From a virus (Duplodnaviria > Heunggongvirae > Uroviricota > Caudoviricetes): a stretch of 64,000 nt of DNA. The notes under the pieces are model-generated. The model searched no databases and was not told where the DNA came from. It worked only from the letters and a program-made list of their open reading frames with translations. This document shows, in pieces, positions 10,417 to 51,097 of this stretch; positions within the stretch are counted from its first letter, which is position 1, and the number at the start of each line of letters is the position of its first letter. Where the stretch lies: positions 1 to 64,000 of IMG/VR virus record IMGVR_UViG_3300000304_000005; one strand, 5' to 3'. Both the position numbers and the translations under genes were made by a program.

Positions 10417-10448
10417 CGTTGCCAAAATGATATTTGATTATGTTACGC

Positions 10449-10522
10449 GCTCCTATAGCTCAATCGGAAAGAGCCAGAGTTTTCTACACTTTAGGTTGCA
10501 GATTCAAGTTCTGCTAGGAGCG
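10449..10522 (+). tRNA. tRNA-Arg (anticodon TCT)
   Basis: Manual fold: acceptor GCTCCTA/TAGGAGC perfect 7 bp, D stem GCTC/GAGC, anticodon loop TTTCTAC, T arm GCAGA-TTCAAGT-TCTGC. 74 nt. Confidence 0.65.
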
Positions 10523-10554
10523 CGTAGTATAATTGCTACAATGTTTAAAGATGT

Positions 10555-10641
10555 GCCGGTGTGCTGGAACTGGAAGACGGAACGGATTCAAAATCCGCGG
10601 GTAGGAATACCGTGAGGGTTCGACTCCCTCCACCGGTACCA
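10555..10641 (+). tRNA. tRNA-Leu (anticodon CAA), type II with long variable arm, CCA encoded
   Basis: Acceptor GCCGGTG/CACCGGT, anticodon loop TTCAAAA, variable hairpin GGTA-GGAA-TACC, T arm GAGGG-TTCGACT-CCCTC, then ACCA. Confidence 0.55.
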
Positions 10642-32092: not shown

Positions 32093-34417
32093 ATGTATAA
32101 GAATAAGAATCAAAATCCATCGGTTAAATTCAAGGCAACTGTTATCAGAGCTATTTATGAAAAAGATGGATTCGGTATCTATGCTACGCAGGTAAGCACA
32201 CGTGCATATCCATTTCTTAAGTTGAACCAGTATGGCAATGTAAGCATCATGGGAGATATTGCGCCATTAACCATCGGTGTTGAATATGAAATCACGGCAT
32301 CAGAAGAAGAAGCGAAATATGGATATCAGTATAGAGTATCCAATATTTGTCGCGATGTACCAGTAGGACAAGAAGCTGTACGTGCATTTCTAAATGAAAT
32401 TCTTACTGTGAATCAGGCTGATGAATTGTATAGTAAATATCCCGATATCATCGAACGTGTTCGTAAAGATAAACTTGATGATATTGATTTATCTCAATTG
32501 CATGGTATCGGTGAATATACATTTAATAAAATCGTTGAAAAGATTACAAAGAATTTTCATTTAGCGGATATTGTCGCAGAATTTAAAGGTGTATTGACTT
32601 TAAACATGATGAATAAACTATATGATAGATATGGTTCTATTCAAAATATCAAAAAACAATTGAAGAAAGCTCCGTATAGTGCGTTGACAAATATTGATGG
32701 AGTCGGATTTAAAATTGCAAATTCAATTATCCTTACATTGCAAGACGAAGGAATATTTGATTTTGGATTTGATATCAAAACAAGTGTCGATAGATGTTCC
32801 GCATGCATTATTTACCTTCTCAGAGAAAACGAGAAGGAGGGGCATACAAAGATGAATCTTTGGGATGTAAAAAAACAATGTGAAGACCTTGTTCCGATGT
32901 GTGCAGATAAGTTCTATCAGGCACTGGATAACAACGATATCTATTACAATATTGATAGTGCAGAGGTTGCAATTCAAAGCACGCATATAAAGGAAGCTTA
33001 TATCGCTCAAATTATCATTGATAATATAAACAACATTAATCTGTGGAAATGTGATATAAAGAAATATAAAAATATTAACGAGATAGAACTTACAGATGAA
33101 CAATTAAAAGTTGTACAAAACGTATGCATGTATCCAATTAGTATCCTGAATGGCCCTGCCGGTTCGGGAAAGACAGCTAGTACGCAGGCAATTATCGCAA
33201 TGCTTGATGACTTGGGAAAGACATACAAAATCATGTCACCAACCGGTAAAGCTGCTAAGGTTATCAGCGAATATACTGGACGTGAAGCAACAACTATTCA
33301 TCGCGGCTTGGGCTATGGTCCTCCAACGAAATTAAATCCTGCCGGTGTATGGTATTATAATGACCAGCATAAAGTGCAAGAAGACGTTATGATTATCGAT
33401 GAGGTTTCAATGGTGGATGTCAATTTATTCTATCGTCTTATATCGGCAATTGACTTTACACATACAAAACTTCTTATGATTGGAGACAATGCGCAGCTGC
33501 CATCTGTCGGCTGCGGAAACATACTTCATGACTTTATGCAAAGCAATTTGATTCCAACGGTAACGCTAGCAAAAATTTTCCGATATGGAGAAGGCGGCTT
33601 AATGAAAGTTGCTACAGATATCCGTATGGGGAAACGATATCTTGATTCATCAATGAAAGACAAGAAAACGTTGTTTGGCAAGAACGGCGATTATGTATTC
33701 TTAGATGTTGCGCCTGAGAAATCAGTTAGAATCGCTGTAGAAATTTATAAGAAACTGATAGAATCAGGATGCAAAATTGAAGATGTACAAGTTATTACAC
33801 CTAAAAATGTGGGTAAATATGGAACTGTCGAGCTTAATAAGCTTCTTCAACTTGTTGCAAATCCGAATGCAAAAGATAAAGATGCAATATGTATGACGTT
33901 CGATAATGTTGTATATTATGAGGGCGATTTAATTATCGAAACAAAAAACAATTATGATGCTCCATTATCTCCTGATTATCCTATTCCTAGCTATATTTTC
34001 GTACCAGACGATGAAGAAATTGTACCTACGGCATTTATCGCAAATGGTGAAAACGGTATAGTTAAGAAAGTTGGTAAAAATTTCATCGATATTGCATTCG
34101 GCGATGTCGTTGTTCGATATGATAGGGCTATGGCACAAATGATTAATCTTGGATATGCAATCACTTGTCATAAATCGCAGGGTTCATCTATTAATAACGT
34201 TATTTTAATCACCACTCAATCCGATATCTTCACTCTTAATTCAAATCTTGTATATGTTGGCTGCACACGAGCGAGAAATCGTTGTTTCCATATTGGTTCG
34301 GTAGATACAATGAATAAAGTTATTAAAAAGAAAATTAATCTTACTCGTCATACATTTATGCAGCAATTACTTAGAGAATATGTAAAAAATATGAAGGCAC
34401 AAAATACAAATAATTAA
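32093..34417 (+). CDS. RecD/Dda-like SF1 helicase
   Basis: Walker A ILNGPAGSGKT, Walker B MIIDEVSMVD, motif V/VI ITCHKSQGSSINNVILI. Confidence 0.65.
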   Translation: MYKNKNQNPSVKFKATVIRAIYEKDGFGIYATQVSTRAYPFLKLNQYGNVSIMGDIAPLTIGVEYEITASEEEAKYGYQYRVSNICRDVPVGQEAVRAFLNEILTVNQADELYSKYPDIIERVRKDKLDDIDLSQLHGIGEYTFNKIVEKITKNFHLADIVAEFKGVLTLNMMNKLYDRYGSIQNIKKQLKKAPYSALTNIDGVGFKIANSIILTLQDEGIFDFGFDIKTSVDRCSACIIYLLRENEKEGHTKMNLWDVKKQCEDLVPMCADKFYQALDNNDIYYNIDSAEVAIQSTHIKEAYIAQIIIDNINNINLWKCDIKKYKNINEIELTDEQLKVVQNVCMYPISILNGPAGSGKTASTQAIIAMLDDLGKTYKIMSPTGKAAKVISEYTGREATTIHRGLGYGPPTKLNPAGVWYYNDQHKVQEDVMIIDEVSMVDVNLFYRLISAIDFTHTKLLMIGDNAQLPSVGCGNILHDFMQSNLIPTVTLAKIFRYGEGGLMKVATDIRMGKRYLDSSMKDKKTLFGKNGDYVFLDVAPEKSVRIAVEIYKKLIESGCKIEDVQVITPKNVGKYGTVELNKLLQLVANPNAKDKDAICMTFDNVVYYEGDLIIETKNNYDAPLSPDYPIPSYIFVPDDEEIVPTAFIANGENGIVKKVGKNFIDIAFGDVVVRYDRAMAQMINLGYAITCHKSQGSSINNVILITTQSDIFTLNSNLVYVGCTRARNRCFHIGSVDTMNKVIKKKINLTRHTFMQQLLREYVKNMKAQNTNN

Positions 34418-34418
34418 A

Positions 34419-34461
34419 CAATGACGGTTGGTGTACAATACAAGTATGCCAACTGTCATTG
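34419..34461 (+). terminator. hairpin terminator-like element
   Basis: 13-bp stem CAATGACGGTTGG/CCAACTGTCATTG after the helicase stop. Confidence 0.4.
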
Positions 34462-34492
34462 TTATATGCTATAAAAATAAAAAAGGAGTAGT

Positions 34493-35440
34493 GTGAAAAG
34501 TTCAACTATAACTATGCTTTGTGGCTTACCGGCTTCAGGCAAATCAACATATGCAAAGAAACTTGCAAAAGATATGAATGCAATAATCATTAGTTCCGAT
34601 GCATTGCGATTAGAGATGTTTGGTGACGAGACGGACCAAAACTATAATCAGCAGGTATTTCAAGAGCTTCATAAAAGAGCAAAAAAACATCTGCGTGCTG
34701 GTAGAAACATAATTTATGATTCTACGAATATATCATCTAAACGCAGGCGAGGATTTCTCAATGAGCTTAAGAATATCGATTGCCGTAAGGAATGCATTAT
34801 TATAGCAACTCCATATGAACAATGCCTTGAGAACAATAGGAACAGAGAGCGCAAAGTTCCAGAATGGGTAATCGAGAAAATGTATCGCAAGTGGCAAACC
34901 CCACATACATTTGAGGGTTTTGATAAGGTTGATATTAAATATTGGGACAATGAACATTTTGTAGAAGAAACAGATATTGTGAATTCTCTTCTTGATTTTG
35001 ACCAGCAAAATCCTCATCATTCACTTACTCTTGGTGAACATTTACTGAAGACATGGCAAACATGTCACCTTAATGATTTTAATCTTATTGATTCTTTGGA
35101 TATTTTAAGCGCATGTCTCGTGCATGATTGTGGCAAACCATTTGTTAAGACGTTTACCAATGTAAAAGGAGAGGCCACAAATATCGCACATTATTATGAC
35201 CATGAACATGTATCAGCATATGAATCATTGTTTATACAGCAAGGTGTTCTAAAAGAAGGCTGGGATTATATTGCTCCAAATATCGTGAATGTTTCTGCTC
35301 TTGTTACATGGCATATGCAACCCTACTATTGGGAGAAAGACAACAACGAAAAGCTCCGAAATAAATACAAAAAGATTTGGGGAGAAGAACTTTATCGTTC
35401 TATTATGGCGTTACACGAAGCAGATAAAGCTGCGCATTAA
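34493..35440 (+). CDS. polynucleotide kinase (P-loop) fused to HD-domain phosphohydrolase
   Basis: N-terminal MLCGLPASGKSTYAKKLA ... RNRERKVPEWVIEKMYRKWQTP (T4 Pnk-like kinase). C-terminal HD motifs HHSLTLGEH ... LVHDCGKP ... D. Confidence 0.6.
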   Translation: MKSSTITMLCGLPASGKSTYAKKLAKDMNAIIISSDALRLEMFGDETDQNYNQQVFQELHKRAKKHLRAGRNIIYDSTNISSKRRRGFLNELKNIDCRKECIIIATPYEQCLENNRNRERKVPEWVIEKMYRKWQTPHTFEGFDKVDIKYWDNEHFVEETDIVNSLLDFDQQNPHHSLTLGEHLLKTWQTCHLNDFNLIDSLDILSACLVHDCGKPFVKTFTNVKGEATNIAHYYDHEHVSAYESLFIQQGVLKEGWDYIAPNIVNVSALVTWHMQPYYWEKDNNEKLRNKYKKIWGEELYRSIMALHEADKAAH

Positions 35441-35456
35441 ATATGGAGTATAATAT

Positions 35457-36170
35457 ATGAATTTAACAGGTCGTGTTTTTGATAGATTAACCGTAGTAAA
35501 AAGAGCCGAAGATATTGTATATCCTAATGGTAGAAAAGTGCCACAATGGTTATGTGAATGTAACTGTGACGAAAAAACAAATATAATTGTACGTCAAGAC
35601 TCATTATTGAATAAAAGATGTAGGTCTTGTGGTTGTCTAAAAAGAGAAACAACTAGTAAACGATTTAAGAAGTATAATACATATGATTTGTCTGGTGAAT
35701 ATGGTATTGGCTACACGTAAAAAGAAGAAGAGTTTTATTTTGACTTAGAAGATTACGATAAAATAAAAGATTATTGTTGGTGTATAAATCAAGATGGGTA
35801 TGTGTTCAATAGTAGTTCTAGAATACTCATGCATAGATTAGTAACCGATTGTCCGCAAAATATGTTTGTAGACCATCAGCATGGAGAAGAAAGCAGAAAC
35901 GATAATAGGAAGACAAATTTAAGAATATGTACTGTACAAGAAAACAATAGGAACCATAAAATATGCGAAAGAAACACGTCTGGTGTAACTGGTGTTAGCT
36001 TTGATAAAACAAGAAACAAATGGGAGGCCAGTATAAAGTTCAATAATAAGAATTATAAAAAGCGCTTTGATTCTTTTGATGATGCCGTAACACAACGTAA
36101 AAAATGGGAAGATGACTTTTTTGGAGAATATAGTTATTATAATAGCCAAAAAACCAACAGAAAGGAATGA
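35457..36170 (+). pseudogene. HNH-AP2 homing endonuclease paralog with in-frame TAA stop at 35718-35720
   Basis: ORFs 35457..35720 and 35802..36170 share one frame. The translation across the stop aligns with the intact paralog 19850..20611 (YDLSGEYGIGYT*KEEEFYFDLEDYDKIKDYCW vs YDLSREYGVGYTSKGEEFWFDLEDYDKIKDYCW). Confidence 0.55.
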
Positions 36171-36745
36171 CAATGATTCAAATCAGACAGAGTGTGTTCG
36201 AAACAAACTCATCATCGACTCACAGCATTTGCATTCAGAAGAATCCTGTAGATGCAGACTATAGAGAAATCACATTTAGTTTAGGTGAGTTTGGATGGAA
36301 CGAGGGCATTGCAAATTTTGGTGATTACCTATATACCGCTATCATGTGTAATAATACCTCTGATTCAAAAGACAACAAGCTTCTTAAGAAACTTAAAGAC
36401 ATTCTTGATAAACATCATATTCGATATTGTTTTGAAAAGCCTATCTATGATGATAAATATGGTTGGTTATCTAATGGGTATATCGACCATTCATATAATC
36501 TTGGTGACTTTGTAGATATTGTACTTAATGATGAAGACCTTCTTCTTCGTGGCCTATTTGGCGAAGATAGCGTGGTATATACGGGCAACGACAATACCGA
36601 TTATGAAGATAATCTGTGCGGTATAGCATGCGACTATATTTGGGTAAAAGATAAAGACGAAAATTGGGTTAAAAAGAAAGTAGGAAATTGGGATAATCCG
36701 TATTATGACCCAGATAACTTTGATTATTTTTATAAGGATAATTGA
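36167..36745 (+). CDS. hypothetical protein, family with N-terminal VFETNSSSTHSI motif (copy 1)
   Basis: 192-aa ORF. N-terminus IRQSVFETNSSSTHSICI. Confidence 0.45.
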   Translation: MTMIQIRQSVFETNSSSTHSICIQKNPVDADYREITFSLGEFGWNEGIANFGDYLYTAIMCNNTSDSKDNKLLKKLKDILDKHHIRYCFEKPIYDDKYGWLSNGYIDHSYNLGDFVDIVLNDEDLLLRGLFGEDSVVYTGNDNTDYEDNLCGIACDYIWVKDKDENWVKKKVGNWDNPYYDPDNFDYFYKDN

Positions 36746-37185
36746 TATTACATATAGGTAAGAATCTACAGAAAGGAATCAAAATGCTACAAATGCGCAA
36801 GAATGTATTCGAGACGAATTCGTCATCCACTCATTCAATTACTATGTGTACTCAAGATGAATATGATGCATGGGCAAATGGCAAGGTTCTTCTGAATGAT
36901 GGTTGGTGGAGCGGGGACAACGAGTCAGAATTCAAGGATAAGAAATTTGTAACTCGCGAAGAGGCGGAAGATATTATCAAGCACGATAAATATCATGAAC
37001 CGACAGATGAACTATCTAATCTTAGCGATGAGGAATTTGACGAATATTGTCACGATATGGATTATGGGCTATATTCAATGGATAGATATTTTGAGAACGA
37101 ATATCTTGAATGGTTTAACGAAAAGTATACGACTCCATCTGGCGAGACGGTTGTCGCATTTGGATTATACGGGCAGAATTACTAG
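36742..37185 (+). CDS. hypothetical protein, family with N-terminal VFETNSSSTHSI motif (copy 2)
   Basis: 147-aa ORF. N-terminus MRKNVFETNSSSTHSITM. Tandem paralog of 36167. Confidence 0.45.
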   Translation: MILHIGKNLQKGIKMLQMRKNVFETNSSSTHSITMCTQDEYDAWANGKVLLNDGWWSGDNESEFKDKKFVTREEAEDIIKHDKYHEPTDELSNLSDEEFDEYCHDMDYGLYSMDRYFENEYLEWFNEKYTTPSGETVVAFGLYGQNY

Positions 37186-37195
37186 GAGATAATCA

Positions 37196-37573
37196 ATGGA
37201 AGTAATTCAGGAACTTGCTAATCGGCTTGGTGTTGCTGTAGAGAATCTTTTATCTGCGTATGCTCCGTTTTGTCTCGGTACCAATATCGGCAATGTAACA
37301 TGTTCATTTATTATTTTGGTTGGCAGCATCATTGTGATGATTTTATCATTAAGAGCCATGATGCGTAATTATCGTGCGTTATGTGCCACATATGATAAGC
37401 ATATCAGTGAAAGGCCACAGGTTTGGGTATATGGCGCAATTGCAGCAATTATGATGTTTGTAATATCAATTTCCATTGCAGTTTTTGTACGCAGCCTACC
37501 ATATCTTATTGGCTGCATTATGTCTCCACAAGGAGCGGCAATTCATGAACTAATTAAGATGGTGACGAGGTAA
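37196..37573 (+). CDS. small membrane protein
   Basis: Three predicted hydrophobic helices. Confidence 0.35.
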   Translation: MEVIQELANRLGVAVENLLSAYAPFCLGTNIGNVTCSFIILVGSIIVMILSLRAMMRNYRALCATYDKHISERPQVWVYGAIAAIMMFVISISIAVFVRSLPYLIGCIMSPQGAAIHELIKMVTR

Positions 37574-37578
37574 TTAAT

Positions 37579-38484
37579 ATGGCTAATATCGTACACTATA
37601 AAAACGGAAACTATACTGTTATGCTCGACCTTGATACGGGCACAAAAATTCGTTATAACAATAAGGATAATCTTACGCCAGAGTTCCCAGAGTCGATGGA
37701 TGTTCTTATCTCAAAGCGCTGCAATAAACAATGTCCGATGTGCCATGAGCGTTGTTCGCCAGAAGGTAAGCATGCAGACATCATGCATTCTAAATTTATT
37801 GAAAATCTTCATCCGTATACAGAAATTGCGCTTAATGGCAATGAGCCACTTCATCCAGATTTGATTCCATTTCTTGATAAATGCAAATCTCTCAAACTCG
37901 TTCCATCTCTTACTGTCCATCAAGATACATTTATGAACAATTCCGATTTACTTAAAAAACTTTGCGACGAAAAACTGATTTACGGCTTAGGTGTGTCTCT
38001 TGATGATGTTTCCGATATTGATGCGTGTAATGATTTTGTTTGGAAACTAAAGGAATTTCCTAATGCTGTCATCCATGTTATTAATGGTATGGTGAAGGTT
38101 GATGACTTATGGTTCCTCGCATCGATGGGATTTAAGATTCTTATTCTTGGGTATAAGAAATTTGGACGTGGTATCGGATTCTATGGAAACTGCAATCATG
38201 AGATTGAATATTATAAGAAAAAGCTATATGATGCTCTCCCTGAAATAATTGATGAGAAGTGGTTTGAAGTTGTCAGTTTCGACAACCTAGCTATCGAGCA
38301 ACTTGATGTGAAGCGACTGATGACAGAAGATGAATGGAACAAATTCTATATGGGAGATGACGGGACGCATACGTTTTATGTAGATTTGGTGAATAATAAA
38401 TTTGCTAAGAGCAGCACATCCACTAAGCGGTATGATTTGATAGATGATGTCAAGACTATGTTCAATGTAATTAGGAACGAATGA
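37579..38484 (+). CDS. radical SAM domain protein
   Basis: CNKQCPMC (Cx3Cx2C) cluster motif near the N-terminus. 301 aa. Distinct from NrdG at 42705. Confidence 0.45.
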   Translation: MANIVHYKNGNYTVMLDLDTGTKIRYNNKDNLTPEFPESMDVLISKRCNKQCPMCHERCSPEGKHADIMHSKFIENLHPYTEIALNGNEPLHPDLIPFLDKCKSLKLVPSLTVHQDTFMNNSDLLKKLCDEKLIYGLGVSLDDVSDIDACNDFVWKLKEFPNAVIHVINGMVKVDDLWFLASMGFKILILGYKKFGRGIGFYGNCNHEIEYYKKKLYDALPEIIDEKWFEVVSFDNLAIEQLDVKRLMTEDEWNKFYMGDDGTHTFYVDLVNNKFAKSSTSTKRYDLIDDVKTMFNVIRNE

Positions 38485-38799
38485 TAAAGAAGAAGAAAAT
38501 ATGATTACTGATGATGGCCGTATTTATGGATGATTTTTTGAAGCAATCGAACTTCCAAAAGAACAATATAATTGGTGTGAATATCTTGCAAAACTTATCA
38601 TGCCAGATTCAACTTAATAGTTGAAAATCTAATGTAGATTTTGTATGATTTTTATGTAGTGTATAGAGTGGTATATTTAAGGGTACAATAGTAAACCACA
38701 AGATATGCCACTCTTAAGGCATTGAATGTACTAAATATTGTAGGTTGGCATTTTTAACAATAAAAGCCATATGTCAAAAATGAAAGGCGCGGTGATGTT

Positions 38800-39465
38800 A
38801 TGGTTGATTTCCAAATCATTAAAAAAGATGGAACACTAGAACCATACAACGAACAAAAGATTATCAATGCCTGTAAGAAAGCAGCAGCAAGAGCGCTTGA
38901 TGATTTGTCTGATGATGACTATCAGAATGTGTGCGATGCAGTAATGAGCTATATTACAGAGCATTACGATAATGGTTCTGATATTCCTGTCAAAACGATT
39001 CATTCAATCGTTGAACAAACACTAGTTGACCTATATCCTAAGACTGGCGAAGCATACCGTGAATACCGTAATTACAAAGTTGACTTTGTAGCCATGCTTG
39101 ACGATGTATATCAGAAGAGCCAGTCAATTCGATACCTCGGAGACGTAAGCAACGCAAACACAGATTCATCTATGATTTCTACGCAGCGCTCGCTTATCTA
39201 TGGACAGCTAAATAAGAATCTATATCGTAAGTTCTTTTTGAATAAAGATGAGCTTCAAGCATCAAATGATGGATACATTTATATCCATGACATGAAAGAC
39301 CGTCTCGACGGATTTAACTGTTGTTTGTTTGATATGGGGAACGTTGTTAAAAGCGGATTTGAGATGGGCAACGTCTGGTATAACGAGCCTAAGACTCTTG
39401 ATGTTGCATTCGATGTCATATCAGATGTGACTATGAGCGCGGCAAGCCAACAGTACGGTAAGTAA
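38800..39465 (+). CDS. nrdD: anaerobic ribonucleoside-triphosphate reductase, exon 1 (ATP-cone plus start of catalytic domain)
   Basis: ATP-cone MVDFQIIKKDGTLEPYNEQKIINACKKA. ORF ends at a stop right after ...QQYGK, at an intron-like boundary GGTAAG|TAAAAATTGCC. Confidence 0.6.
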   Translation: MVDFQIIKKDGTLEPYNEQKIINACKKAAARALDDLSDDDYQNVCDAVMSYITEHYDNGSDIPVKTIHSIVEQTLVDLYPKTGEAYREYRNYKVDFVAMLDDVYQKSQSIRYLGDVSNANTDSSMISTQRSLIYGQLNKNLYRKFFLNKDELQASNDGYIYIHDMKDRLDGFNCCLFDMGNVVKSGFEMGNVWYNEPKTLDVAFDVISDVTMSAASQQYGK

Positions 39466-39770
39466 AAATTGCCGTAGTAAAACCTGCTTAACCCTGCCAA
39501 GGGGTGTGTAATTATGTATATTATGCTAACGGTGAAACCTAAGTCGATAGATATGGTAATACCGTGTTATCTTTAACCAACTCCTATATAGATAAGGAGC
39601 GAAAATGATTTATGGGTTAAAGAGAATGTAGAGGACATCGAAAGGGTATCTTAATTTTAAAGCTAGAATTAAGAGAGTAACCGAGTAGAGTAAATTGCGA
39701 GATAGGCACGCAATTGAAACAGCAGGAAACGTTTAGCAAACGTTTAAGATATGTTGCAACCAAGTAACCA
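39466..39770 (+). mobile_element. group-I-like intron 1 in nrdD (ORF-less, ~305 nt)
   Basis: Non-coding insert between two nrdD-like ORF segments. Shares motifs GTAAAACCT, GGGTGTGT, ATGCTAACGG with inserts 2 and 3. Boundaries approximate. Confidence 0.45.
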
Positions 39771-40271
39771 GTATGGAAACATATGTCTTGGTTGGGTTTT
39801 ACAATTCCACGAGTCGAGACTATTCTTGCTCCTTATGCAGAGAAGTCATATAAGAAGTATTATGATGAATATTTCGATATCGTGAATGAAGATAGCGACG
39901 AAGCAAAAGAGAACGCAGAGAAGTATGCTGATAAAAAGGTATATCGAGATATGGAACAGGGCTTCCAGTCTTGGGAGTATCGATTCAATACTGTTGGTTC
40001 TTCTCGTGGCGATTATCCATTCATTGCCATCTCGTTTGGCATTGGTACAAGCAAGTTCGAGAGAATGGCAAGTGAGGCAGCGCTACGTGTTCGTATGGGC
40101 GGGCAGGGTAAGCCGGGATTTAAGCGTCCAGTCCTATTCCCTAAGCTAACATTCCTTTACGATGAGAATCTTCATGGCGAAGGAAAAGAGCTGGAATATC
40201 TTTTCGATATCGCTATTGAGTGCAGCAGCAAGACAATGTACCCTAAACAAAATTGGGGCTTGGCAGCGTAA
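39771..40271 (+). CDS. nrdD: nrdD exon 2
   Basis: ORF NTVGSSRGDYPFIAISFGIGTS...KRPVLFPKLTFLYDENLHG, class III RNR-like. Frame opens after TAA at 39765. Confidence 0.5.
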   Translation, partial: VWKHMSWLGFTIPRVETILAPYAEKSYKKYYDEYFDIVNEDSDEAKENAEKYADKKVYRDMEQGFQSWEYRFNTVGSSRGDYPFIAISFGIGTSKFERMASEAALRVRMGGQGKPGFKRPVLFPKLTFLYDENLHGEGKELEYLFDIAIECSSKTMYPKQNWGLAA

Positions 40272-41351
40272 GCTACCAAGAAAACTTCGTGAACCTGTAA
40301 TTTCAGGGTGTGTAACTCACGTTAGTAACCGTAGGAAATGACGGCTAAGAGTTATGCTAACAGGGGAATGTTCATTTTATATGAACGCTATCCTGTGGAG
40401 TTTAATCATTATAATCTTGTTTCGATTTACTTGGAGGCAAGATGGATGATAGAAAAATATACTATGTTTATAAATGGATAAGATTAGACATGAATCAAGT
40501 GTTTTATATTGGAAAAGGACACGGTAATAGATATAAAGATAGAAGTATGAGAAATAGGTATTTCAACAATGTTGTCAATAAAGTTGGAATGGATAATATA
40601 GTAATCAAATTTATAGAAACCGATTTAGACGAAGAAACTGCGTTTGAAAAAGAAAGATATTATATTAAATATTATAAAGAGCTTGGACATAGACTAACAA
40701 ATTTAACTAGCGGAGGTGATGGCAGTTCAGACTGGTACTCTTTTCTATCAGACGAAGAAAAAGAGCGGCATAGAGAGATATCTAAAAGTTTCTTGGGCAG
40801 ACACCATACAGAAGAAACGAAAAAGAAAATGAGTAAGTCTATGACTGGTCTTAAACACCGTTTCACAGATGAATCTCGTCAAAGACTGATAGATAGCGTA
40901 AAATCTAGGCCAGCTCCGTTTAAAGGTAAACATCTTTCTGAAGAAACAAAAGAAAAAATAAGACAAACTCGCTTGGGAACACAAAGCAAAAATGCTAAAG
41001 AAGTTTTGGTACTGAATACAGATTACGATATTATTGACAACATTCGTTCAAGAGCAGATACATTTAAGAAATATCAATATGTAAAACAACATGAAATTAG
41101 AAAATGTCTTGAAGGTAACTCAAAGCTTTTCGATACTAAAAATTGTTTGTTTTATCAAAATATATGTTTCATTTATAAACAAGATTATGATAGATTAAAT
41201 TCTCAATCGACTATCGAAACGGTAGCATAAGACGTAGCTTATGTGAGAACGGAGTAGAGTACACATAATGTGAAATTCATTGTGTGGAAGTGCGAAGAAT
41301 CCAATGACAGTTCATTGGATTATGATATAGTCAAAGCCCAACACGTATTGT
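40272..41351 (+). mobile_element. group-I-like intron 2 in nrdD carrying a GIY-YIG homing endonuclease ORF
   Basis: 1.08-kb insert. 5' region shares GGGTGTGTAA...ATGCTAACAGG motifs with introns 1 and 3. Contains a free-standing HEG. Boundaries approximate. Confidence 0.45.
40442..41230 (+). CDS. GIY-YIG homing endonuclease (intron-encoded) with NUMOD3 repeats
   Basis: IYYVYKWIRLDMNQVFYIGKGHGNRY matches the GIY-YIG signature. Repeated HTEETKKKMSKSMTGLKH / LSEETKEKIRQTRLG NUMOD3-like motifs. Confidence 0.65.
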   Translation: MDDRKIYYVYKWIRLDMNQVFYIGKGHGNRYKDRSMRNRYFNNVVNKVGMDNIVIKFIETDLDEETAFEKERYYIKYYKELGHRLTNLTSGGDGSSDWYSFLSDEEKERHREISKSFLGRHHTEETKKKMSKSMTGLKHRFTDESRQRLIDSVKSRPAPFKGKHLSEETKEKIRQTRLGTQSKNAKEVLVLNTDYDIIDNIRSRADTFKKYQYVKQHEIRKCLEGNSKLFDTKNCLFYQNICFIYKQDYDRLNSQSTIETVA

Positions 41352-41462
41352 GAGAGCGTGGTATGGTAACATACATGGGCTTGGATTTTTTAAGTCTCAC
41401 AGGAGAGGGATATATCCCATCTATGTATAAGAAATATGGTAAAGTAGTATCGCTTATGGGTA
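41352..41462 (+). CDS. nrdD: nrdD mini-exon 3 (~37 codons)
   Basis: Open frame ERGMVTYMGLDFLSLTGEGYIPSMYKKYGKVVSLMGK. Ends at GGTAAG|TGAAAATGCAGCC, nearly identical to the exon 1/intron 1 junction. Below the ORF-track size cutoff. Confidence 0.4.
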
Positions 41463-41465
41463 AGT

Positions 41466-41705
41466 GAAAATGCAGCCCATGTAAAACCTATTGAACCTTG
41501 CTTAAAGGGTGTGTGAGAAATCATGCTAACGGATAGGTCTTATGGAGACGAGGGTTTATGATATAAGATGAGTCCGTGCCAAGCCTATAGATAGTCTATA
41601 GGAAGGTGTATCGACCAACTGTGATGAGTGTAGCAGTGTAGGACGGGAGATAAGCACCCGTTCCAAGCAATAGGCTCGATGAAGAATTAGCAATTCTGAG
41701 AGAAC
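41466..41705 (+). mobile_element. group-I-like intron 3 in nrdD (ORF-less)
   Basis: Starts TGAAAATGCAGCCCATGTAAAACCT...GGGTGTGTGA...ATGCTAACGG, which parallels the intron 1 5' region. Boundaries approximate. Confidence 0.4.
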
Positions 41706-41714
41706 ATATGGTCA

Positions 41715-42701
41715 GTGCGAATAGCGATATTCGATAAAACGTGCAGAGCTTCGCTTTCTCCTTGGTACGTCCGTGGTGGAATGGAACCGGCAGACGATGA
41801 TGATTATCCTGTGTTTGAAGGGCGCTGTAATTTGGGAGCGATTTCTCTACATCTGCCAATGATTCTTGCTAAGGCTCTCCAAGAGAATATGGATTTTTAT
41901 GAGGTTCTTGACTATTATCTTGAGATGATTCGTAACCTTCACAAGAGAACTTATGCGTTCCTTGCAGAGAAACCTGCATCTACGAATCCGCTTGCCTTTA
42001 TGCAAGGTGGCCTACTAGGCGGTACGCTTAAAGCAGATGAGAAGATTGGCAAGCTGCTTCCTCCGATGACGATGAGTTTTGGCATCACGGCATTGAACGA
42101 ACTACAAGAGCTATATAACGGCAAGTCACTTGTTGAAGATGGTGAATTCGCTCTTGAAGTGATGCAGTATATCAACGACTATGTAAACCGCATCAAGAAG
42201 GAAGACAATATCCTGTGGGCTGTTTACGGAACTCCTGCCGAGTCGCTATGTGGATTACAGGTAGAACAATTCCGTAAGAAGTATGGCATTGTCAGGGGAG
42301 TATCAGACCGAGAGTATGTTTCTAACTCGTTCCACTGTGGAGTTTGGGAGGACATTACTCCAATTCAGAAGCAAGACTTAGAGGGTAGATTCTGGAATAT
42401 GTTCAATGGTGGTAAGATTCAATATTGTCGCTATCCTGTTTCATACAACCATGAAGCACAGAAGACCCTTGTTCGTCGTGGTATGCAGAAGGGATTCTAT
42501 GAGGGGTGCAACCTAGCGCTTTCATATTGCGAAGATTGTGGTTATGAGCAGCTTGAAATGGATGTATGTCCTAAGTGTGGTAGTGAAAACATCACGCAGA
42601 TTGACCGCATGAACGGGTATATTGGATATACTAAGATTCATGGTAAGAGTCGTTATAACCATGCTAAGGTTGTAGAAATCAAAGAACGCAAAAGCATGTA
42701 G
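41715..42701 (+). CDS. nrdD: nrdD final exon (C-terminal half with Zn-ribbon and glycyl-radical motif)
   Basis: CEDCGYE...CPKCGSE Zn ribbon. Glycyl radical motif DRMNGYIGYT (RxxGY). The listed start is a GTG. The true exon begins around 41700-41715. Confidence 0.6.
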   Translation: MRIAIFDKTCRASLSPWYVRGGMEPADDDDYPVFEGRCNLGAISLHLPMILAKALQENMDFYEVLDYYLEMIRNLHKRTYAFLAEKPASTNPLAFMQGGLLGGTLKADEKIGKLLPPMTMSFGITALNELQELYNGKSLVEDGEFALEVMQYINDYVNRIKKEDNILWAVYGTPAESLCGLQVEQFRKKYGIVRGVSDREYVSNSFHCGVWEDITPIQKQDLEGRFWNMFNGGKIQYCRYPVSYNHEAQKTLVRRGMQKGFYEGCNLALSYCEDCGYEQLEMDVCPKCGSENITQIDRMNGYIGYTKIHGKSRYNHAKVVEIKERKSM

Positions 42702-42704
42702 TCT

Positions 42705-43226
42705 GTGAGGTGTTGTACAATGAACTATCATATGATTAGAACAGACGATATGCTTAACGGCGATGGACTAAGAGTAGTTGTCTTCCTTGCAATGTGCGAC
42801 CATCATTGTCCCGGATGTCATAACCCAGAGACATGGAACGGATATGGCAGCAAACCATTTGACGAAGAAGCCAAAAATATGGTATATGCAGAGCTTGACA
42901 AGGATTATATTTCTGGCATTACTTTGTCTGGCGGTGACCCATTGAACGAAGCTAATATCGATGATGTCCTTGAGTTAATCAAAGATATTAGAATTAAATA
43001 TCCCAACAAGACCATATGGCTCTATACGGGATTTTCGTGGGAGAAAATTGTTTCTAATGTAAAACTGTATAATATTGCAAGATTGTGTGACGTTGTTGTT
43101 GACGGTAGATTTGTTCAAGAGCTTGCAGATGTCAATTATCCTTGGGCTGGTTCAACGAATCAAAGAGTAATTGATATTAATAAAACAATGGCTAATCAGA
43201 AGCTTACATTGCTTAATAATAGTTAG
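42705..43226 (+). CDS. nrdG: anaerobic RNR activating enzyme (radical SAM)
   Basis: MCDHHCPGCHNPETW (Cx3Cx2C). 173 aa. Immediately downstream of nrdD. Confidence 0.7.
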   Translation: MRCCTMNYHMIRTDDMLNGDGLRVVVFLAMCDHHCPGCHNPETWNGYGSKPFDEEAKNMVYAELDKDYISGITLSGGDPLNEANIDDVLELIKDIRIKYPNKTIWLYTGFSWEKIVSNVKLYNIARLCDVVVDGRFVQELADVNYPWAGSTNQRVIDINKTMANQKLTLLNNS

Positions 43227-43234
43227 GCTTTACA

Positions 43235-44356
43235 ATGATTGGCATATATAAGATTACAAATCTTCTTAATGGTAAATGTTATATCGGTCAAAGCGTAGAT
43301 ATTGAGAGGCGTGTTCGGGACCATATAAAAGCATCTAAAAGTGAGTATTCGACAGAATACGATTCCCCTATTCACAAATCTATACGAATTCATGGCGTTA
43401 AAAACTTTTCCTTTGAGACTATAGAAGAGTGTAAAGCGGAACAGCTTAATGATAAAGAGATATATTGGATACAATATTATGACACGTATTTACACGGATA
43501 CAACCAAACAATTGGAGGCAATATTGGAGACAGCGTAAAACGAGCTGTGTGCGGATATGATTTTAAGGGGAATAAACTTTACGAATATAATACAATACGT
43601 GAGGCTGAAAAAGTTCACGCTCGTGGTATTTGTGAAAGCTGTATAAACAGAACACAAGATAGAACAGCAAATGGATACTATTGGTTCTATAAAGATGATG
43701 TGAATGGTTTATCAGAAGAAGAAGTTTTCCAAATGATTTTCGAGCGTTCTCCTACTGTTTGTTGTCAGCTAGATAAAGATACTGGCGAATTGATTGATGA
43801 ATATTTTACTGCCAAAGAAGCAGCGGAAGCGCTTGGATATAATTCAATAGGAAACATAACTTCTTGTTGTCTCGGAAATAGAAGAATTGCTGTTGATTTT
43901 CAATGGTGTTATAGAAGGGATTTAAAAAACAGAATAAATAAGCAACCCCCTCCTGTAAACACTTACAGCAAACCTGTTACTCAATATAGGTTATCTGGCA
44001 TGAAACTAAAAGAATGGGAAAGCGGTAGGGTGGCAGCAATAGCAACTGGATGTTCTGATGCTCATCTATCACAAGTGTGCAATGGCAAGAGACAACAGTG
44101 TGGGGGATATCAATGGAGATACACATCTGATAATATAGAACAGCTTGAAGATATAAGAACCGAGACAGTTATTGATTTAGATACAAACTATATTTTCCCA
44201 ACAATTAATCATGCAGCGAAACATTTTAATATTGCACATCAAACAATGAAGAAGATATGTTTGGGAGAAACAGATAGATATCCAGATATTCATGCTGTTT
44301 TTATACTATTAGATTCACCAGAAATGCAAAACACGACAGAAGCGGATGACAACTAA
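43235..44356 (+). CDS. GIY-YIG homing endonuclease
   Basis: MIGIYKITNLLNGKCYIGQSVDIERRVRDH matches the GIY-YIG signature. C-terminal repeated HTH-like modules. Confidence 0.55.
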   Translation: MIGIYKITNLLNGKCYIGQSVDIERRVRDHIKASKSEYSTEYDSPIHKSIRIHGVKNFSFETIEECKAEQLNDKEIYWIQYYDTYLHGYNQTIGGNIGDSVKRAVCGYDFKGNKLYEYNTIREAEKVHARGICESCINRTQDRTANGYYWFYKDDVNGLSEEEVFQMIFERSPTVCCQLDKDTGELIDEYFTAKEAAEALGYNSIGNITSCCLGNRRIAVDFQWCYRRDLKNRINKQPPPVNTYSKPVTQYRLSGMKLKEWESGRVAAIATGCSDAHLSQVCNGKRQQCGGYQWRYTSDNIEQLEDIRTETVIDLDTNYIFPTINHAAKHFNIAHQTMKKICLGETDRYPDIHAVFILLDSPEMQNTTEADDN

Positions 44357-44697
44357 CGTCATATGCAACAATGCAATATTCTGCAATTCGCAATATATGA
44401 CAACGACGGCGCAGACAAAAAACAAACAAGCCAATCAGGTGTGTAGAACATATGAATACAAAACATCTCACAACAACATGTTCTGCGCCGTCGTATAATT
44501 ATCTCGTCAGCAAAAGAACATAACAAAAGGAGAACAATGAGCACATATGAGGTGACGAGAACAAGCTCGTATAAAATACACTTATGAAATCTATGATGAT
44601 TGGCATGAATAATGAAGTTATATATTTATCGAACAACAAAATTTAATAAACTTCCATATGATGTAAATTAGTATATTGAAATTTACAACTAACGTCT

Positions 44698-44707
44698 AAG
44701 GTTATAT
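44698..44707 (+). promoter_or_regulatory. AAGGTTATAT promoter-like motif (copy 6)
   Basis: Same 10-mer as at 14923, 18545, 19789, 20613 and 23911. Confidence 0.35.
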
Positions 44708-44846
44708 ACAAGCGGCACATTCTGATTATATCTAAGAAATATATGTAAGAATTATGAACACGTTAATTGTTAAATAAATACAGAGTGTGCCGCTGTATTA
44801 TTAAACAGCCATCATAAACAACAAAACTATAGAAAGGTGTAAAAGT

Positions 44847-45515
44847 ATGAAGACAACTGGTGTTACCGAGATGAAGCACATTGCCAACGATTATCCAGTA
44901 GAATGCGTTCCAAGCAACTACCCAGAAAATATCGACACGCCATCAAGTGATAACGACTTTGCATATTTAAAGGCGCTATATGAGAAGCAAAATAATCCTC
45001 GGTTTGAGATTGTATCATTTGAGCAATTCAAGAATGATTGGCTTGATGCTTTCAAGGGGCTATGGGATGAAGATAATGAGAACGATATGAATGATATCAA
45101 GTACATCTATAACTGCCTAACCATCCCAAGTCGTTCAACTAAGCACAGTGCAGGATATGATTTCAAGTCTCCAATCAATTTCAAGCTTCAGCCCGGTGAA
45201 TCAATCATGATTCCAACTGGTATCCGCTCTTATATGCCAAAGAATATGGTACTGATGATTTTCCCTCGTAGCGGACTAGGCACAAAGTATCGGCTAGGAC
45301 TTTGTAACACTGCGAGCGTAATCGACAGTGATTATTTTTATTCTAATAATGAAGGACATATTTACATTAAAATGATTAATGAAGGAGACAAGGTGGTCAC
45401 AGTTGACCAAGGTCAGGCATTCGTACAGGGAATCTTTATTGAATACTTCACTACCTATGATGATAATGCAGATGGTGTCCGTACTGGCGGCATGGGAAGC
45501 ACCGATAAGAAGTAG
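44847..45515 (+). CDS. dut: dUTPase / dCTP deaminase family protein
   Basis: Motifs IMIPTGIRSY, PRSGLGTKYRL, TASVIDSDY (dUTPase motif III-like), GDKVVTVDQGQAFVQ. Confidence 0.55.
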   Translation: MKTTGVTEMKHIANDYPVECVPSNYPENIDTPSSDNDFAYLKALYEKQNNPRFEIVSFEQFKNDWLDAFKGLWDEDNENDMNDIKYIYNCLTIPSRSTKHSAGYDFKSPINFKLQPGESIMIPTGIRSYMPKNMVLMIFPRSGLGTKYRLGLCNTASVIDSDYFYSNNEGHIYIKMINEGDKVVTVDQGQAFVQGIFIEYFTTYDDNADGVRTGGMGSTDKK

Positions 45516-49958: not shown

Positions 49959-50436
49959 AGTCCTGCAAAGCAAGAATTCACAACAAGCAAAGATAGATGT
50001 TATCATTGACAAACTCGTCTCATACATTAAAGACTATACTAAACACGAACTCGAAGATGTATTAAATAATGAAGAACAATCTAGCGGCAATGAACCTGAT
50101 TATATTGCTTCTTATACCGATATCTGTAACAGTATTAAGCATCAAATGAATTATAACGAAGACGATTCTTGCCAAGATGAACAAGATGTACAACATGACT
50201 CGGTAAATCATCCAAATCACTATAACGATGGAAACATTGAGGTTATTGATTTTATTGAAGATAAAAATCTTGGCTTTCATCTTGGCAATGCAATCAAATA
50301 TATTTCTCGTGCCGGTAAAAAACATGAACAAGGTATGAGTAATAAGCAAAAGGAAATTAATGATTTACGTAAAGCCATGTGGTATATCAATTGTAAGATT
50401 GACCAGTTAAAGAACGAGGGAAAAGATGAAAATTAA
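49945..50436 (+). CDS. DUF3310-like phage protein
   Basis: HPNHYNDGNIEVIDFIEDKNLGFHLGNAIKYISRAGKK matches the conserved DUF3310 core seen in many phages. Confidence 0.4.
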   Translation: MTKIEVLQSKNSQQAKIDVIIDKLVSYIKDYTKHELEDVLNNEEQSSGNEPDYIASYTDICNSIKHQMNYNEDDSCQDEQDVQHDSVNHPNHYNDGNIEVIDFIEDKNLGFHLGNAIKYISRAGKKHEQGMSNKQKEINDLRKAMWYINCKIDQLKNEGKDEN

Positions 50437-50732
50437 AGCCAAGCAAATTATAGCAACAATAATCTTAATGATTTTTGCTATAATCTTAATTGCAAGCTTT
50501 CCAATTGTATTGGTTGTCGCATCATTCTTTGCTATAGCTAATTTATTTATGTGGGCTTTAGATAATTGCGGAATTGATTTTTAATTGTTAAATCTACAAT
50601 AATAACAAATATGATTACTAATAAAGATAAAACAACACTAAAATCTGAGATTGAGCGGATATTAAACGAAATCTTAAACGATAAACATGATGCTAAAATT
50701 CAAGTACAATTCATAAGACAAACGTAAAAATA

Positions 50733-50772
50733 AGGGATATAGCCAACATAGGCTATATCCCAATTCTTTTTT
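50733..50772 (+). terminator. rho-independent terminator ending the plus-strand block
   Basis: GGGATATAGCC-AACAT-AGGCTATATCCC hairpin followed by AATTCTTTTTT. Confidence 0.6.
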
Positions 50773-50928
50773 ATCAAAAACTTGCTATCATCTTTTATGT
50801 TGATTTCAAATTATATATTTGTATTATATTTAAAACGTTAAGCTGATAATGTTATATATACGTTTTGTCTTAAACGTTATGGTTAATGTTATAATATAAT
50901 ACAATACGCAATATATTTCATTGGCGTA

Positions 50929-50966
50929 AAAAAATGGGCAGCACGATTTAACGCACAGCCCATCTG
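50929..50966 (-). terminator. rho-independent terminator ending the minus-strand block
   Basis: Minus-strand reading: AGATGGGCTGTGCGTTAAATCGTGCTGCCCATTTTTTT. Confidence 0.55.
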
Positions 50967-51097
50967 TTAAAAGAATAATAAATTATTACTCTTTAATATC
51001 TTGGTCAGCATCCAAAAGAGATTGCACCTCGTCTCGCCAAATACTTGGTACTCGCTCGATTGTATATAAACCTTTTTTAATTAAATTATAATAAATT

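Follow-up and report, generated by a model that had tools for sequence, protein, structure and literature searches.

Among described systems, those closest to the phage locus considered here are the radical SAM (rSAM) maturases of RiPPs, namely SkfB/SkfA, SuiB/SuiA and EpeE(YydG)/EpeX, in which the rSAM gene likewise lies beside a single gene or a tandem set of genes for proteins that have a conserved N-terminal segment in common and differ beyond it. A second likeness is to the anaerobic sulfatase-maturating enzymes (anSME), with the C/S-x-P-x-R motif of sulfatases, and to PflA and NrdG, with an RVxG-type glycine loop; in these systems one rSAM enzyme serves several different clients, themselves folded enzymes, that bear a short invariant motif, and converts a precursor to its active form. 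The single-cluster enzymes viperin/pVip and BlsE act on cytidine nucleotides or nucleosides, and are brought to mind by the nucleotide-metabolism neighbourhood of our locus, which includes a Pnkp-like kinase and NrdD/NrdG. Finally, the internal proteins of phage T4 are diverse and share a conserved N-terminal capsid-targeting sequence, thereby recalling the tandem, fast-diversifying small proteins of this locus with their short N-terminal sequence at a fixed position.

The stretch of DNA that we analysed, a window of 64,000 nucleotides from a caudoviricete genome, carries one copy of a widespread, hitherto undescribed two-component phage module that comprises a single-cluster rSAM enzyme and variable small acidic proteins with a common N-terminal tag. 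All four ORFs named in an earlier, sequence-only reading of the window are present as claimed, namely two tag-bearing proteins (P1 and P2), a membrane protein and the rSAM enzyme (Table 1). The true starts of P1 and P2 are most likely the ATG codons at 36173 and 36784, chosen because an identical putative ribosome-binding site lies 6 nt upstream of each and because the distance from tag to initiator methionine is then as in the homologues; both sites sit within a common ACAGAAAGGAAT. With these starts the two genes do not overlap and are separated by a 38-nt spacer. An Rfam scan of positions 34000-45000 returned no matches, and neither did a megablast comparison of the region with 50,697 phage records; no description of the module was found in the literature on the motif, phage rSAM systems, Lak phage, Ma-LMM01 or Arash.

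Table 1. Features of the module and its surroundings in the window
Feature	Coordinates	Strand	Basis or remark
P1, 190-aa tag-bearing protein	36173..36745	+	listed ORF start 36167
P1 tag, MIQIRQSVFETNSSSTHSI (aa 1-19)	36173..36229	+	logo, conservation counts, model pLDDT
P1 ribosome-binding site (predicted), GAAAGGA	36160..36166	+	6 nt upstream of ATG 36173
P2, 133-aa tag-bearing protein, body end ...YTTPSGETVVAFGLYGQNY	36784..37185	+	listed ORF start TTG 36742
P2 tag, MLQMRKNVFETNSSSTHSI (aa 1-19)	36784..36840	+	BLASTP against P1, logo
P2 ribosome-binding site (predicted), GAAAGGA, same as that of P1	36771..36777	+	6 nt upstream of ATG 36784
Membrane protein, 125 aa, 2-3 TM segments	37196..37573	+	PHROG 1486, hydropathy profile
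rSAM, 301-aa single-cluster radical SAM enzyme	37579..38484	+	PHROG 16999, motif, model
CX3CX2C codons, C48-N-K-Q-C52-P-M-C55, predicted [4Fe-4S] ligands	37720..37743	+	sequence
NrdG, separate gene	42705-43226		TIGR02491, E = 1.8e-54

The two small proteins had been described as sharing an almost identical N-terminal block before diverging, and this is indeed the case: BLASTP of P1 against P2 aligns the block and nothing beyond it (15/23 identical, 21/23 positive, E = 2e-8). The common element is a tag of about 19 residues with the consensus MxQ[IV]RxxVFETNSSSTHS[IL]. Across the 12 codons of VFETNSSSTHSI, eight differ between P1 and P2 and all eight changes are synonymous, indicating that the tag is conserved at the protein level and ruling out a DNA repeat or recent gene conversion. 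A logo was built from 137 distinct proteins, and conservation was counted over 150 P1-like representatives with less than 50% mutual identity. In the latter, conservation reaches 98-100% at each of the tag residues F, E, T, N, S, S, S and H, and mean pairwise identity is 85% within the tag against 35% in the remainder of the protein. Judged from these alignments, the conservation of the tag is far beyond chance. Its position is fixed at 8-10 residues from the methionine in the homologues, and it contains no Gly, no Cys, no S-x-P-x-R and a single T-H-S without H-x-S repeats. The matches of a search with a 46-aa alignment of the tag region were fragments of 29-81 aa only. The AF2 model of P1 is confident over the body, and model residues 1-14 (numbered from the start at 36167, and so corresponding to tag residues 1-12) have pLDDT below 50, the mean rising from 30 over residues 1-10 to 60 over residues 11-20. 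The low values over most of the P1 tag would fit a free N-terminal peptide.

The label "paralogs" given earlier to P1 and P2 is misleading, as their bodies, once the tag is removed, show no detectable homology (hhalign probability 0.2%). Both proteins are acidic (P1, pI 4.4, net charge -16; P2, pI 4.3, net charge -19), and a P2 orthologue is found in Lak-B7 (L005, 8672-8974). A further class of body, G3, scores below 1% in hhalign against every other class, and the P1-type, G4, G5 and G6 bodies are remote homologues of one another (55-94%). The tag is borne by at least three unrelated body classes. P1-type bodies are characterized by the motifs GEFGW, GYIDH and TGNDN and a C-terminal YFYK(G/D)N. 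The tagged proteins have no relative in Pfam, NCBIfam, PADLOC or the PDB, a Pfam scan of eight further tag-bearing bodies gave no matches, and the P1 model matched no known fold. The earlier statement that none of the four proteins has an obvious assignment was sustained by scans of Pfam, NCBIfam, PADLOC and PHROGs, in the last of which they matched only families of unknown function or those labelled "Fe-S oxidoreductase" and "membrane protein"; sequence and profile searches with P1 and P2 likewise found no known structural or replication family. Comparison of the P1 motifs with SGNH-hydrolases, HAD, Toprim, B12-binding and 2H-phosphoesterase domains was unproductive, the order of the motifs being different or the model matching none of these folds. 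A role of the C-terminal FGxYG/YKGN as a glycyl-radical "spare part" was also rejected, given that these motifs are not in all body classes, that PflA-type activases are structurally distant and that NrdG is encoded separately.

HAD phosphatases carry a DxDxT motif at their start, and the tag might by comparison be the N-terminal catalytic motif of a single, extremely divergent enzyme superfamily, with the rSAM enzyme connected to it only through the pathway, as producer or consumer of a shared metabolite. The tag residues E, N, S, S, S and H are typical of catalysis or metal binding, the first β-strand of the P1 fold (model aa 17-24) comes straight after the tag, and the remote homology among P1-type, G4, G5 and G6 bodies is as such a superfamily would have it. 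Nevertheless, we regard this as improbable, given that P2-type and G3 bodies have neither homology to the P1-type nor its other motifs, that some P2-type proteins are just ~92-100 aa long with little else conserved, and that AF2, at the above mean pLDDT values, leaves the tag unpacked on the body.

Tag and enzyme co-occur whichever of the two is taken as the starting point. Of 160 related loci reached from the rSAM side, 146 (76/80 from IMG/VR and 70/80 genome loci) have one to six tag genes on the same strand within 5-7 kb, the last of which usually ends ~10 nt before the rSAM start. Starting from the tag, an rSAM gene is found within 8 kb in 74 of 79 loci; four of the five exceptions have at most 4 kb of downstream sequence, three of these ending within 1 kb of the tag, and in the fifth the contig does carry an rSAM gene, at a distance of ~14 kb. 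A survey of 50,697 phage records placed P1 homologues in the very set of Lak and Microcystis-phage records that encode the rSAM, and in no others. All-against-all clustering of ORFs from 86 loci revealed no universal members besides the rSAM (86/86) and the tag proteins (80/86), and no protease or exporter linked to the module. Enzyme and tag are tightly coupled functionally, and this co-occurrence upholds the idea that these genes form a functional cluster. The conserved functional unit is the rSAM with one to six tag-bearing proteins rather than the block of four genes proposed earlier: the membrane protein (PHROG 1486 "membrane protein", E = 6.9e-7) is present in only four of the 86 loci (L002, L003, L008 and the window) and is a passenger, a lineage-specific insertion between P2 and rSAM that lies outside the conserved module. 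Its assignment as a membrane protein stands, and the three TM segments ascribed to it are better counted as two, possibly three, in light of two strong hydrophobic stretches (~29-58 and ~74-110) in the hydropathy profile.

Carriers of the module include Lak megaphages, bloom-controlling Microcystis phages (the Ma-LMM01 group), gut Firmicute phages, abundant phages of the human and ruminant gut, and Salmonella phage Arash. Its abundance is reflected in more than 7,000 rSAM clusters at 90% identity, ~2,700 P1-type representatives at 50% identity and at least 443 contigs in IMG/VR. The system is amenable to experiment, cultured carriers being available in Ma-LMM01, in Arash (on S. Typhimurium ATCC 14028) and, as loci, in Eubacterium plexicaudatum ASF492 and Lachnospiraceae MD308. 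Since enzyme and tag are found together in hundreds of phages that are otherwise unrelated, they probably make up a protein-maturation system not described before. The commonest architecture is P1-type, P2-type and rSAM (64 loci), and a P2-type protein is the sole partner of the rSAM in 16 loci, G3 in 19 and a P1-type protein in 18. Tandem arrays of four to six tag genes by one enzyme occur in Lak-B7, L020 and L139, four being found in Lak megaphages, and such arrays resemble multi-precursor maturase loci, an analogy that would favour the tag as a site of modification.

These tandem arrays of diverse small acidic proteins with a short, position-locked N-terminal sequence, so like the T4 internal proteins, might also suggest that the tag is a targeting signal for the capsid, for secretion or for degradation, its adjacency to the rSAM being mechanistically meaningless. 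The V-F-E of the tag, moreover, resembles the hydrophobic-x-Glu sites of prohead proteases. We nonetheless consider this explanation very improbable in view of the near-perfect two-way co-occurrence of enzyme and tag in Lak phages, cyanophages, gut Firmicute phages and a Salmonella phage, and of the residues after the putative cleavage site, which are as invariant as those before it. In Arash the two are even fused: the tag, at the extreme N-terminus, a P1-type body and the rSAM form one protein of 476 aa, which argues for physical interaction of tag protein and rSAM. The particle proteome of Arash lists Gp143 and Gp149 and not this fusion protein, Gp146 (PMC10585845), which also speaks against targeting to the capsid. 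An Acb1-like gene lies two genes downstream of the Arash fusion and is the sole hint at the anti-defence role proposed in the sequence-only reading, for which PADLOC gave no significant match.

The rSAM enzyme has C48-x3-C52-x2-C55 as its sole invariant cysteines in alignments across the Lak, Ma-LMM01/Microcystis-phage and gut-phage members. Its model comprises an N-terminal three-stranded β-sheet (aa 4-26), a partial (β/α)6 TIM barrel and a C-terminal domain that is conserved in the family (SFDNLA...FYMGDDG) and has no counterpart among the family models searched. These features show a radical SAM fold with a single cluster, and the protein matches PHROG 16999 "Fe-S oxidoreductase" (E = 3.2e-34). 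The window enzyme has no Pfam match at E ≤ 0.1, and several homologues have a precomputed match to PF04055, the Arash fusion scoring 51.4 bits against a cut-off of 29.5. Sequence and profile searches of the PDB with P1, P2, G3 and rSAM returned generic rSAM-core matches only, and the solved structures nearest to the rSAM model are the peptide maturases SkfB, SuiB and EpeE. The enzyme is, as had been noted, an orphan distinct from NrdG, and it does not combine a match to the NrdG/PflA family models with a glycyl radical enzyme of its own as the only client. Nor did Pfam, NCBIfam and PDB profile searches yield a housekeeping match of the QueE type, or a model match accompanied by QueC, QueD or FolE genes. 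Auxiliary-cluster cysteines of the SPASM/twitch kind are absent, with no SPASM or Fer4 match in Pfam, and there is no Pfam match to an RRE (PqqD-like) domain, the modelled N-terminus being a three-stranded sheet without helices. The module does share with SPASM/twitch maturases the presence of adjacent genes (one to six) with a conserved recognition sequence, though their products are folded proteins.

Several known rSAM families were discarded as assignments. The match to prokaryotic viperin (pVip; PADLOC E = 0.006, 14.1 bits) covers only the cluster-binding region; that to HxsC of the His-Xaa-Ser system (HxsB/HxsC) reaches 16.9 bits against a TIGR03977 cut-off of 267.9, and the tag has no H-x-S repeats; and an anSME is contradicted by the lack of both C/S-x-P-x-R in the tag and auxiliary-cluster cysteines in the enzyme. 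Rhodothermus phage RM378 and Klebsiella phage KP15 carry more remote homologues of the rSAM, which fall outside the family, having no adjoining tag gene and a different architecture. In RM378 the remote homologue adjoins a nucleotidyltransferase whose annotation is that of a probable poly(A) polymerase.

Given the above observations, our preferred, though still tentative, reading is that the rSAM enzyme may well bind and modify the tag; the tag as substrate, its docking mode, the chemistry and the role of the matured proteins are all points that we infer. The flexible tag would dock on the enzyme, possibly as an extra strand on its N-terminal three-stranded sheet, and enter the barrel, where the 5'-deoxyadenosyl radical would take a hydrogen from an invariant Ser, Asn or His of the tag, resulting in a matured client protein. 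As there is no auxiliary Fe-S cluster, a redox-neutral or self-contained outcome would be expected, such as epimerisation, Ser dehydration or an intra-tag cross-link, and a two-electron oxidation of the SPASM-enzyme type is less likely. Among the functions suggested in the sequence-only reading, peptide modification gains some support from the two-way co-occurrence and from SkfB, SuiB and EpeE as nearest structures. A more elaborate version, which we regard as unlikely in its entirety, is that one enzyme places a radical-derived modification on the universal 19-residue tag of whole folded proteins, which modification could take the form of a D-residue, an electrophile (dehydro or carbonyl) or an intra-tag cross-link serving as a protein-derived cofactor or warhead; the tag would be borne by diversifying, unrelated acidic effectors, one to six per genome, that would engage host targets, for instance defence or nucleic-acid enzymes, at an early stage.

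Certain features count against the tag as substrate. The enzyme has neither an RRE nor the SPASM/twitch cysteines that cross-linking RiPP maturases typically possess; the enzyme-like invariant polar motifs of P1 (GYIDH, TGNDN) could point to a catalytic partner rather than a client; and a fusion of enzyme and substrate, as in Arash, is unusual, a subunit or domain relationship fitting at least equally well. An account that we regard as possible, if somewhat doubtful, is that the tag is a docking peptide or active-site completer that recruits interchangeable P1-, P2- or G3-type partners to the enzyme. The acidic body of the partner would bind a third-party substrate, for instance a nucleotide, a nucleic acid or a host protein, on which the holoenzyme would then act. 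The joining of a P1-type domain and the rSAM in one chain, as in Arash, is what is classically seen with subunits or with consecutive steps, and invariant D107-H108 and T139-G140-N141-D142-N143 in P1-type bodies, the fixed trio that makes up the commonest architecture, and neighbours in replication, nucleotide metabolism and RNA repair (the kinase and NrdD/NrdG in the window, the RM378 nucleotidyltransferase) would all be in keeping with it. On the other hand, each of three unrelated body classes can be the sole partner, so that no single body is an obligate subunit, and there are up to six partners for one enzyme. A run of nine consecutive near-invariant small polar residues, furthermore, is what one would sooner expect in a substrate or an active-site segment than in a docking peptide.

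If the rSAM does modify the tag, the module would represent a new, virus-encoded class of post-translational protein maturation and a new substrate motif for radical SAM chemistry. As it is common and widespread, solving its function would annotate thousands of "hypothetical" genes, and the tag, being short, portable and recognised on unrelated bodies, could serve as a protein-engineering handle.

Set against the known systems, the module differs in several respects. The T4 capsid-targeting sequence has no known enzyme partner, whereas the tag described here is coupled to an rSAM and in Arash forms one chain with it, a protein not reported from the particle proteome. Viperins differ in needing no co-encoded tagged partners, and the pVip match is insignificant. 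In contrast to the clients of anSME, PflA and NrdG, the tagged proteins carry an N-terminal element that holds neither of the respective motifs, and the enzyme, unlike anSME, has no auxiliary clusters. Relative to the RiPP maturases, the rSAM is devoid of both an RRE (PqqD-like) domain and SPASM/twitch cysteines, and the module is phage-borne with no linked protease or exporter. Its clients are folded proteins of 90-330 aa instead of short peptides, and their conserved segment spans only ~19 residues which are probably the reactive site itself rather than a disposable leader.

The coupling of the 301-aa radical SAM enzyme of the window (rSAM) to proteins that begin with the tag, the N-terminal block common to the adjacent small acidic proteins P1 and P2, can be regarded as established with high confidence. 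The enzyme was detected by tblastn in 25 of 50,697 phage genomes, namely those of Salmonella phage Arash, 15 Lak megaphages and 9 members of the Ma-LMM01 group of Microcystis phages, and P1 was recovered from 24 of these genomes, the Lak and Microcystis ones, 1-2 kb from rSAM every time. The gene order in Ma-LMM01 is gp130 (tag protein), gp129 (unrelated) and gp128 (rSAM); in Lak-B7 four tandem genes come after rSAM, all beginning MK[IV]Q[IV]R..VFETNSSSTH[ST], two of which are orthologues of P1 and P2. From 443 rSAM relatives in IMG/VR, 80 loci were taken for inspection of their neighbours, and 76 of these contain one to six same-strand ORFs with the motif; of the four lacking a nearby tag ORF, two have no upstream sequence. 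Between one and six tag ORFs are also present in 70 of 80 further, more divergent loci (39-58% identity) from bacterial and archaeal assemblies. In the reverse search, rSAM lies within 8 kb of the tag in 74 of 79 loci picked by the pattern [VTC]FETNSSS; four of the five exceptions have at most 4 kb downstream of the tag (three of these end within 1 kb), and the fifth, L212, reveals that in the exceptional locus L067 the tag gene and rSAM share a contig 14 kb apart (IMGVR_UViG_3300029705_000040, 164 kb; tag gene at ~88.8 kb, rSAM at ~103.3 kb). This separation implies that adjacency is usual, not obligatory, and in most loci rSAM starts about 10 nt after the end of the last tag gene.

All-against-all comparison of the ORFs of 86 loci recovered nothing universal besides rSAM, in 86/86, and tag proteins, in 80/86; the next commonest cluster, a mobile HNH endonuclease, occurs in 46 loci. 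The sequence-only reading had treated P1, P2, the membrane protein and rSAM as a four-gene block; as the membrane protein occurs in only 4 of the 86 loci, the constant parts reduce to rSAM and the tag proteins. Passenger genes lying between rSAM and the tag genes differ from lineage to lineage. The gp129 gene of Ma-LMM01 does not encode a membrane protein, and its product matches a Pfam domain (see table).

In the window itself, the four ORFs are all present, and the enzyme is, as had been noted, distinct from NrdG, which is the product of another gene. The proposed common block of P1 and P2 was recovered by BLASTP as the sole aligning region (15/23 identical, E = 2e-8). Internal ATGs in both genes are preceded by an identical GAAAGGA ending 6 nt upstream, within a shared ACAGAAAGGAAT, and from these starts the motif-to-Met offset equals that in all homologues. 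On account of this spacing and offset, P1 and P2 are best read as proteins of 190 and 133 aa. The gaps between the P1, P2, membrane-protein and rSAM genes are then 38, 10 and 5 nt, a tight packing, and no terminator-like sites were found between 34300 and 39000. Of the codons for VFETNSSSTHSI, 8/12 differ between P1 and P2 and every change is synonymous, which argues for selection on the peptide, not the DNA.

Coordinates of features in the window and in compared loci (L numbers)
Feature	Sequence	Positions	Remarks
P1	window	36167-36745 (listed); internal ATG 36173	PHROGs family 28997 (unknown function)
P2	window	36742-37185 (listed); internal ATG 36784	
Small membrane protein	window	37196-37573	two strong hydrophobic stretches; PHROGs family 1486 ('membrane protein')
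rSAM	window	37579-38484	301 aa; C48-x3-C52-x2-C55; PHROGs family 16999 ('Fe-S oxidoreductase')
NrdG	window	42705-43226	TIGR02491, E = 1.8e-54
nrdD (class III ribonucleotide reductase) pieces	window	38800-39465, 39783-40271, 41715-42701	
GIY-YIG homing-endonuclease ORF	window	40442-41230	inside second nrdD gap
HNH endonuclease, two ORFs	window	35457-35720, 35802-36170	PHROG 374, PHROG 99; directly upstream of P1
P-loop kinase	window	34493-35440	315 aa; AAA_33/KTI12, E = 2.9e-28; weak C-terminal HD-domain match
Three clustered tRNA genes	window	10345-10641	Met-CAT, Arg-TCT, Leu-CAA
Sign switch of GC skew and gene orientation	window	about 50000-51000	
Ma-LMM01 gp129	L004	5634-5972	Pfam 'Phage ProQ C-terminal-like domain', E = 6.7e-15
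Arash gp143c	L086	6398-6850	annotated 'RNA ligase'; Pfam Acb1 (anti-CBASS 2H phosphodiesterase), E = 1.3e-15
RM378 gp108	L167	4013-4852	
Disrupted P2-type genes	L034-L039, L046	about 6591-6990	

The tag consensus in 137 distinct proteins is M-x-Q-[IV]-R-x-x-V-F-E-T-N-S-S-S-T-H-S-[IL]-x-I, with the Phe 8-10 residues from Met, and its Arg, third Ser and His are invariant although the search pattern did not force them. The rSAM family comprises at least 7,258 clusters at 90% identity and the P1 family 652 clusters; nearly all of 2,699 P1-type representatives (50% identity, E <= 1e-3) align from residue 1-6. A whole-length profile yielded 150 P1-type representatives, in which conservation of the tag residues F, E, T, N, S, S, S and H is 98-100%, and pairwise identity is 85% in the tag versus 35% in the rest of the protein.

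When the tag was cut off and family profiles of the remaining bodies were compared by hhalign, P1-type bodies grouped with classes G5 (93.6%) and G4 (70%), G5 with G6 (55%), and P2-type bodies with G7 (85%). P1 and P2 scored 0.2% against each other, and hence their earlier description as paralogs does not hold for the tag-less proteins. The G3 class (C-x7-C-x3-C-x-C, 183-332 aa) scored below 1% against every other class, and from these profiles the bodies behind the tag appear to be unrelated. P1-type and P2-type genes are found together in 64 loci, the arrangement of the window; 16 loci have P2-type genes alone, 19 have G3 alone and 18 have P1-type genes alone. Strong acidity marks the tag proteins of every class, with a median pI of 4.4-4.9 (neighbouring ORFs: 5.7) and, in the larger classes, a net charge of -13 to -16. 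No body contains a Pfam domain; P1 and P2 gave no match in Pfam, NCBIfam or PADLOC, and P1, P2 and G3 none among all PDB chains in sequence and profile searches.

Several further peculiarities of the tag proteins were observed. The classes, including P1 and P2, are aromatic-rich (11-17% F/W/Y), and a large number of the retrieved tag ORFs measure just 30-80 aa. G3 carries a conserved C-x-RYF-x2-GCL-x-DC-x-CG motif, is encoded directly upstream of rSAM (for example in L119, L127, L132, L136, L137, L146 and L148), never shares a locus with P1- or P2-type genes in the flanks examined, and accompanies a more divergent rSAM clade, whose members share ~40-47% identity with the enzyme of the window. 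Disruptions shortly after the tag affect some P2-type genes: a number of related contigs and L028 have one and the same +1 frameshift at an A-rich site, and in L024 a Trp codon is changed to TAG. Pseudogenes, assembly errors and programmed events are all possible explanations.

The module of the window sits in a genome region concerned with replication and nucleotide metabolism. Its nrdD is interrupted, as in the related locus L002 with GIY-YIG and HNH inserts, and no group I/II introns were found at the interruptions with Rfam, even at E <= 1. The split HNH endonuclease gene upstream of P1 may represent a homing endonuclease that has decayed or suffered a frameshift. The kinase looks, from its domain matches, like a polynucleotide kinase/phosphatase; its L002 homologue has 473 aa and a weak precomputed HNH_3 match. 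An SPbeta-like replication set (YorF, YorH, PolC-type Pol III alpha, RecD2) is found in loci closely related to the window and in further members of the family.

Of the functions raised by the sequence-only reading, peptide modification is now the best-supported, though unproven. We tentatively favour a role of the tag as the client that rSAM binds and modifies, because a free, invariant N-terminal peptide sits on unrelated bodies, several tandem tag genes adjoin one enzyme, and any one body class suffices as its sole partner. A less probable but serious alternative is that the tag docks partner proteins as adaptors or subunits, a third party being the substrate. This is favoured by the enzyme-like motifs of P1 and by the fusion protein Arash gp146c (annotated 'methyltransferase'), in which MYLTQIRYGFATNSSSSHS... 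is followed by a P1-type body (GYGW, GYIDHES, GGNDN) and an rSAM domain (PF04055, E = 1.9e-13). Even here the tag remains at the free N-terminus. That the tag is a purely catalytic N-terminal motif is unlikely, fitting poorly with an unpacked tag and with unrelated, at times tiny, bodies. A targeting signal is very improbable, as it leaves the linkage to the enzyme unexplained; Gp146 is not listed in the published Arash particle proteome, where Gp143 and Gp149 are present (PMC10585845), a weak argument against a virion-targeting role. Among the neighbours of all copies of the module, only gp143c, two genes downstream of the fusion, hints at anti-defence, through its Acb1 match. In Ma-LMM01, gp128-gp130 probably belong to the large middle expression class, being absent from the named early genes gp054-063 and the gp037-041 cluster (PMC5780444).

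The rSAM of the window has no Pfam match, insignificant NCBIfam and PADLOC matches, and cluster-region matches only among all PDB chains in sequence and profile searches. Its structural model (pLDDT 90.3) displays an N-terminal three-stranded sheet, a partial TIM barrel and a C-terminal helical/hairpin domain. Rhodothermus phage RM378 gp108, a remote homologue with 24% identity to the rSAM domain of Arash, has neither the sheet region nor an adjacent tag gene, a single case consistent with possible docking of the tag on this sheet. The only invariant cysteines are the three cluster ligands, implying that there is no auxiliary cluster; with a single cluster, the predicted chemistry is epimerisation, serine dehydration or an intra-tag cross-link, not two-electron oxidation. 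A literature search on the motif and the module found no description, and the module represents a widespread, undescribed phage system that is open to experiment. Structural comparison of the enzyme model with known radical SAM proteins gave scores of 17.7 for SkfB, 17.3 for SuiB, 15.3 for EpeE, 15.0 for both BlsE and viperin, 14.1 for both anSME and ChlB, 13.3 for MoaA, 10.8 for PflA and 9.4 for QueE. The closeness of viperin and BlsE speaks for the adaptor or subunit alternative, and modification of the tag by rSAM is favoured by the closest structures being peptide and protein maturases.
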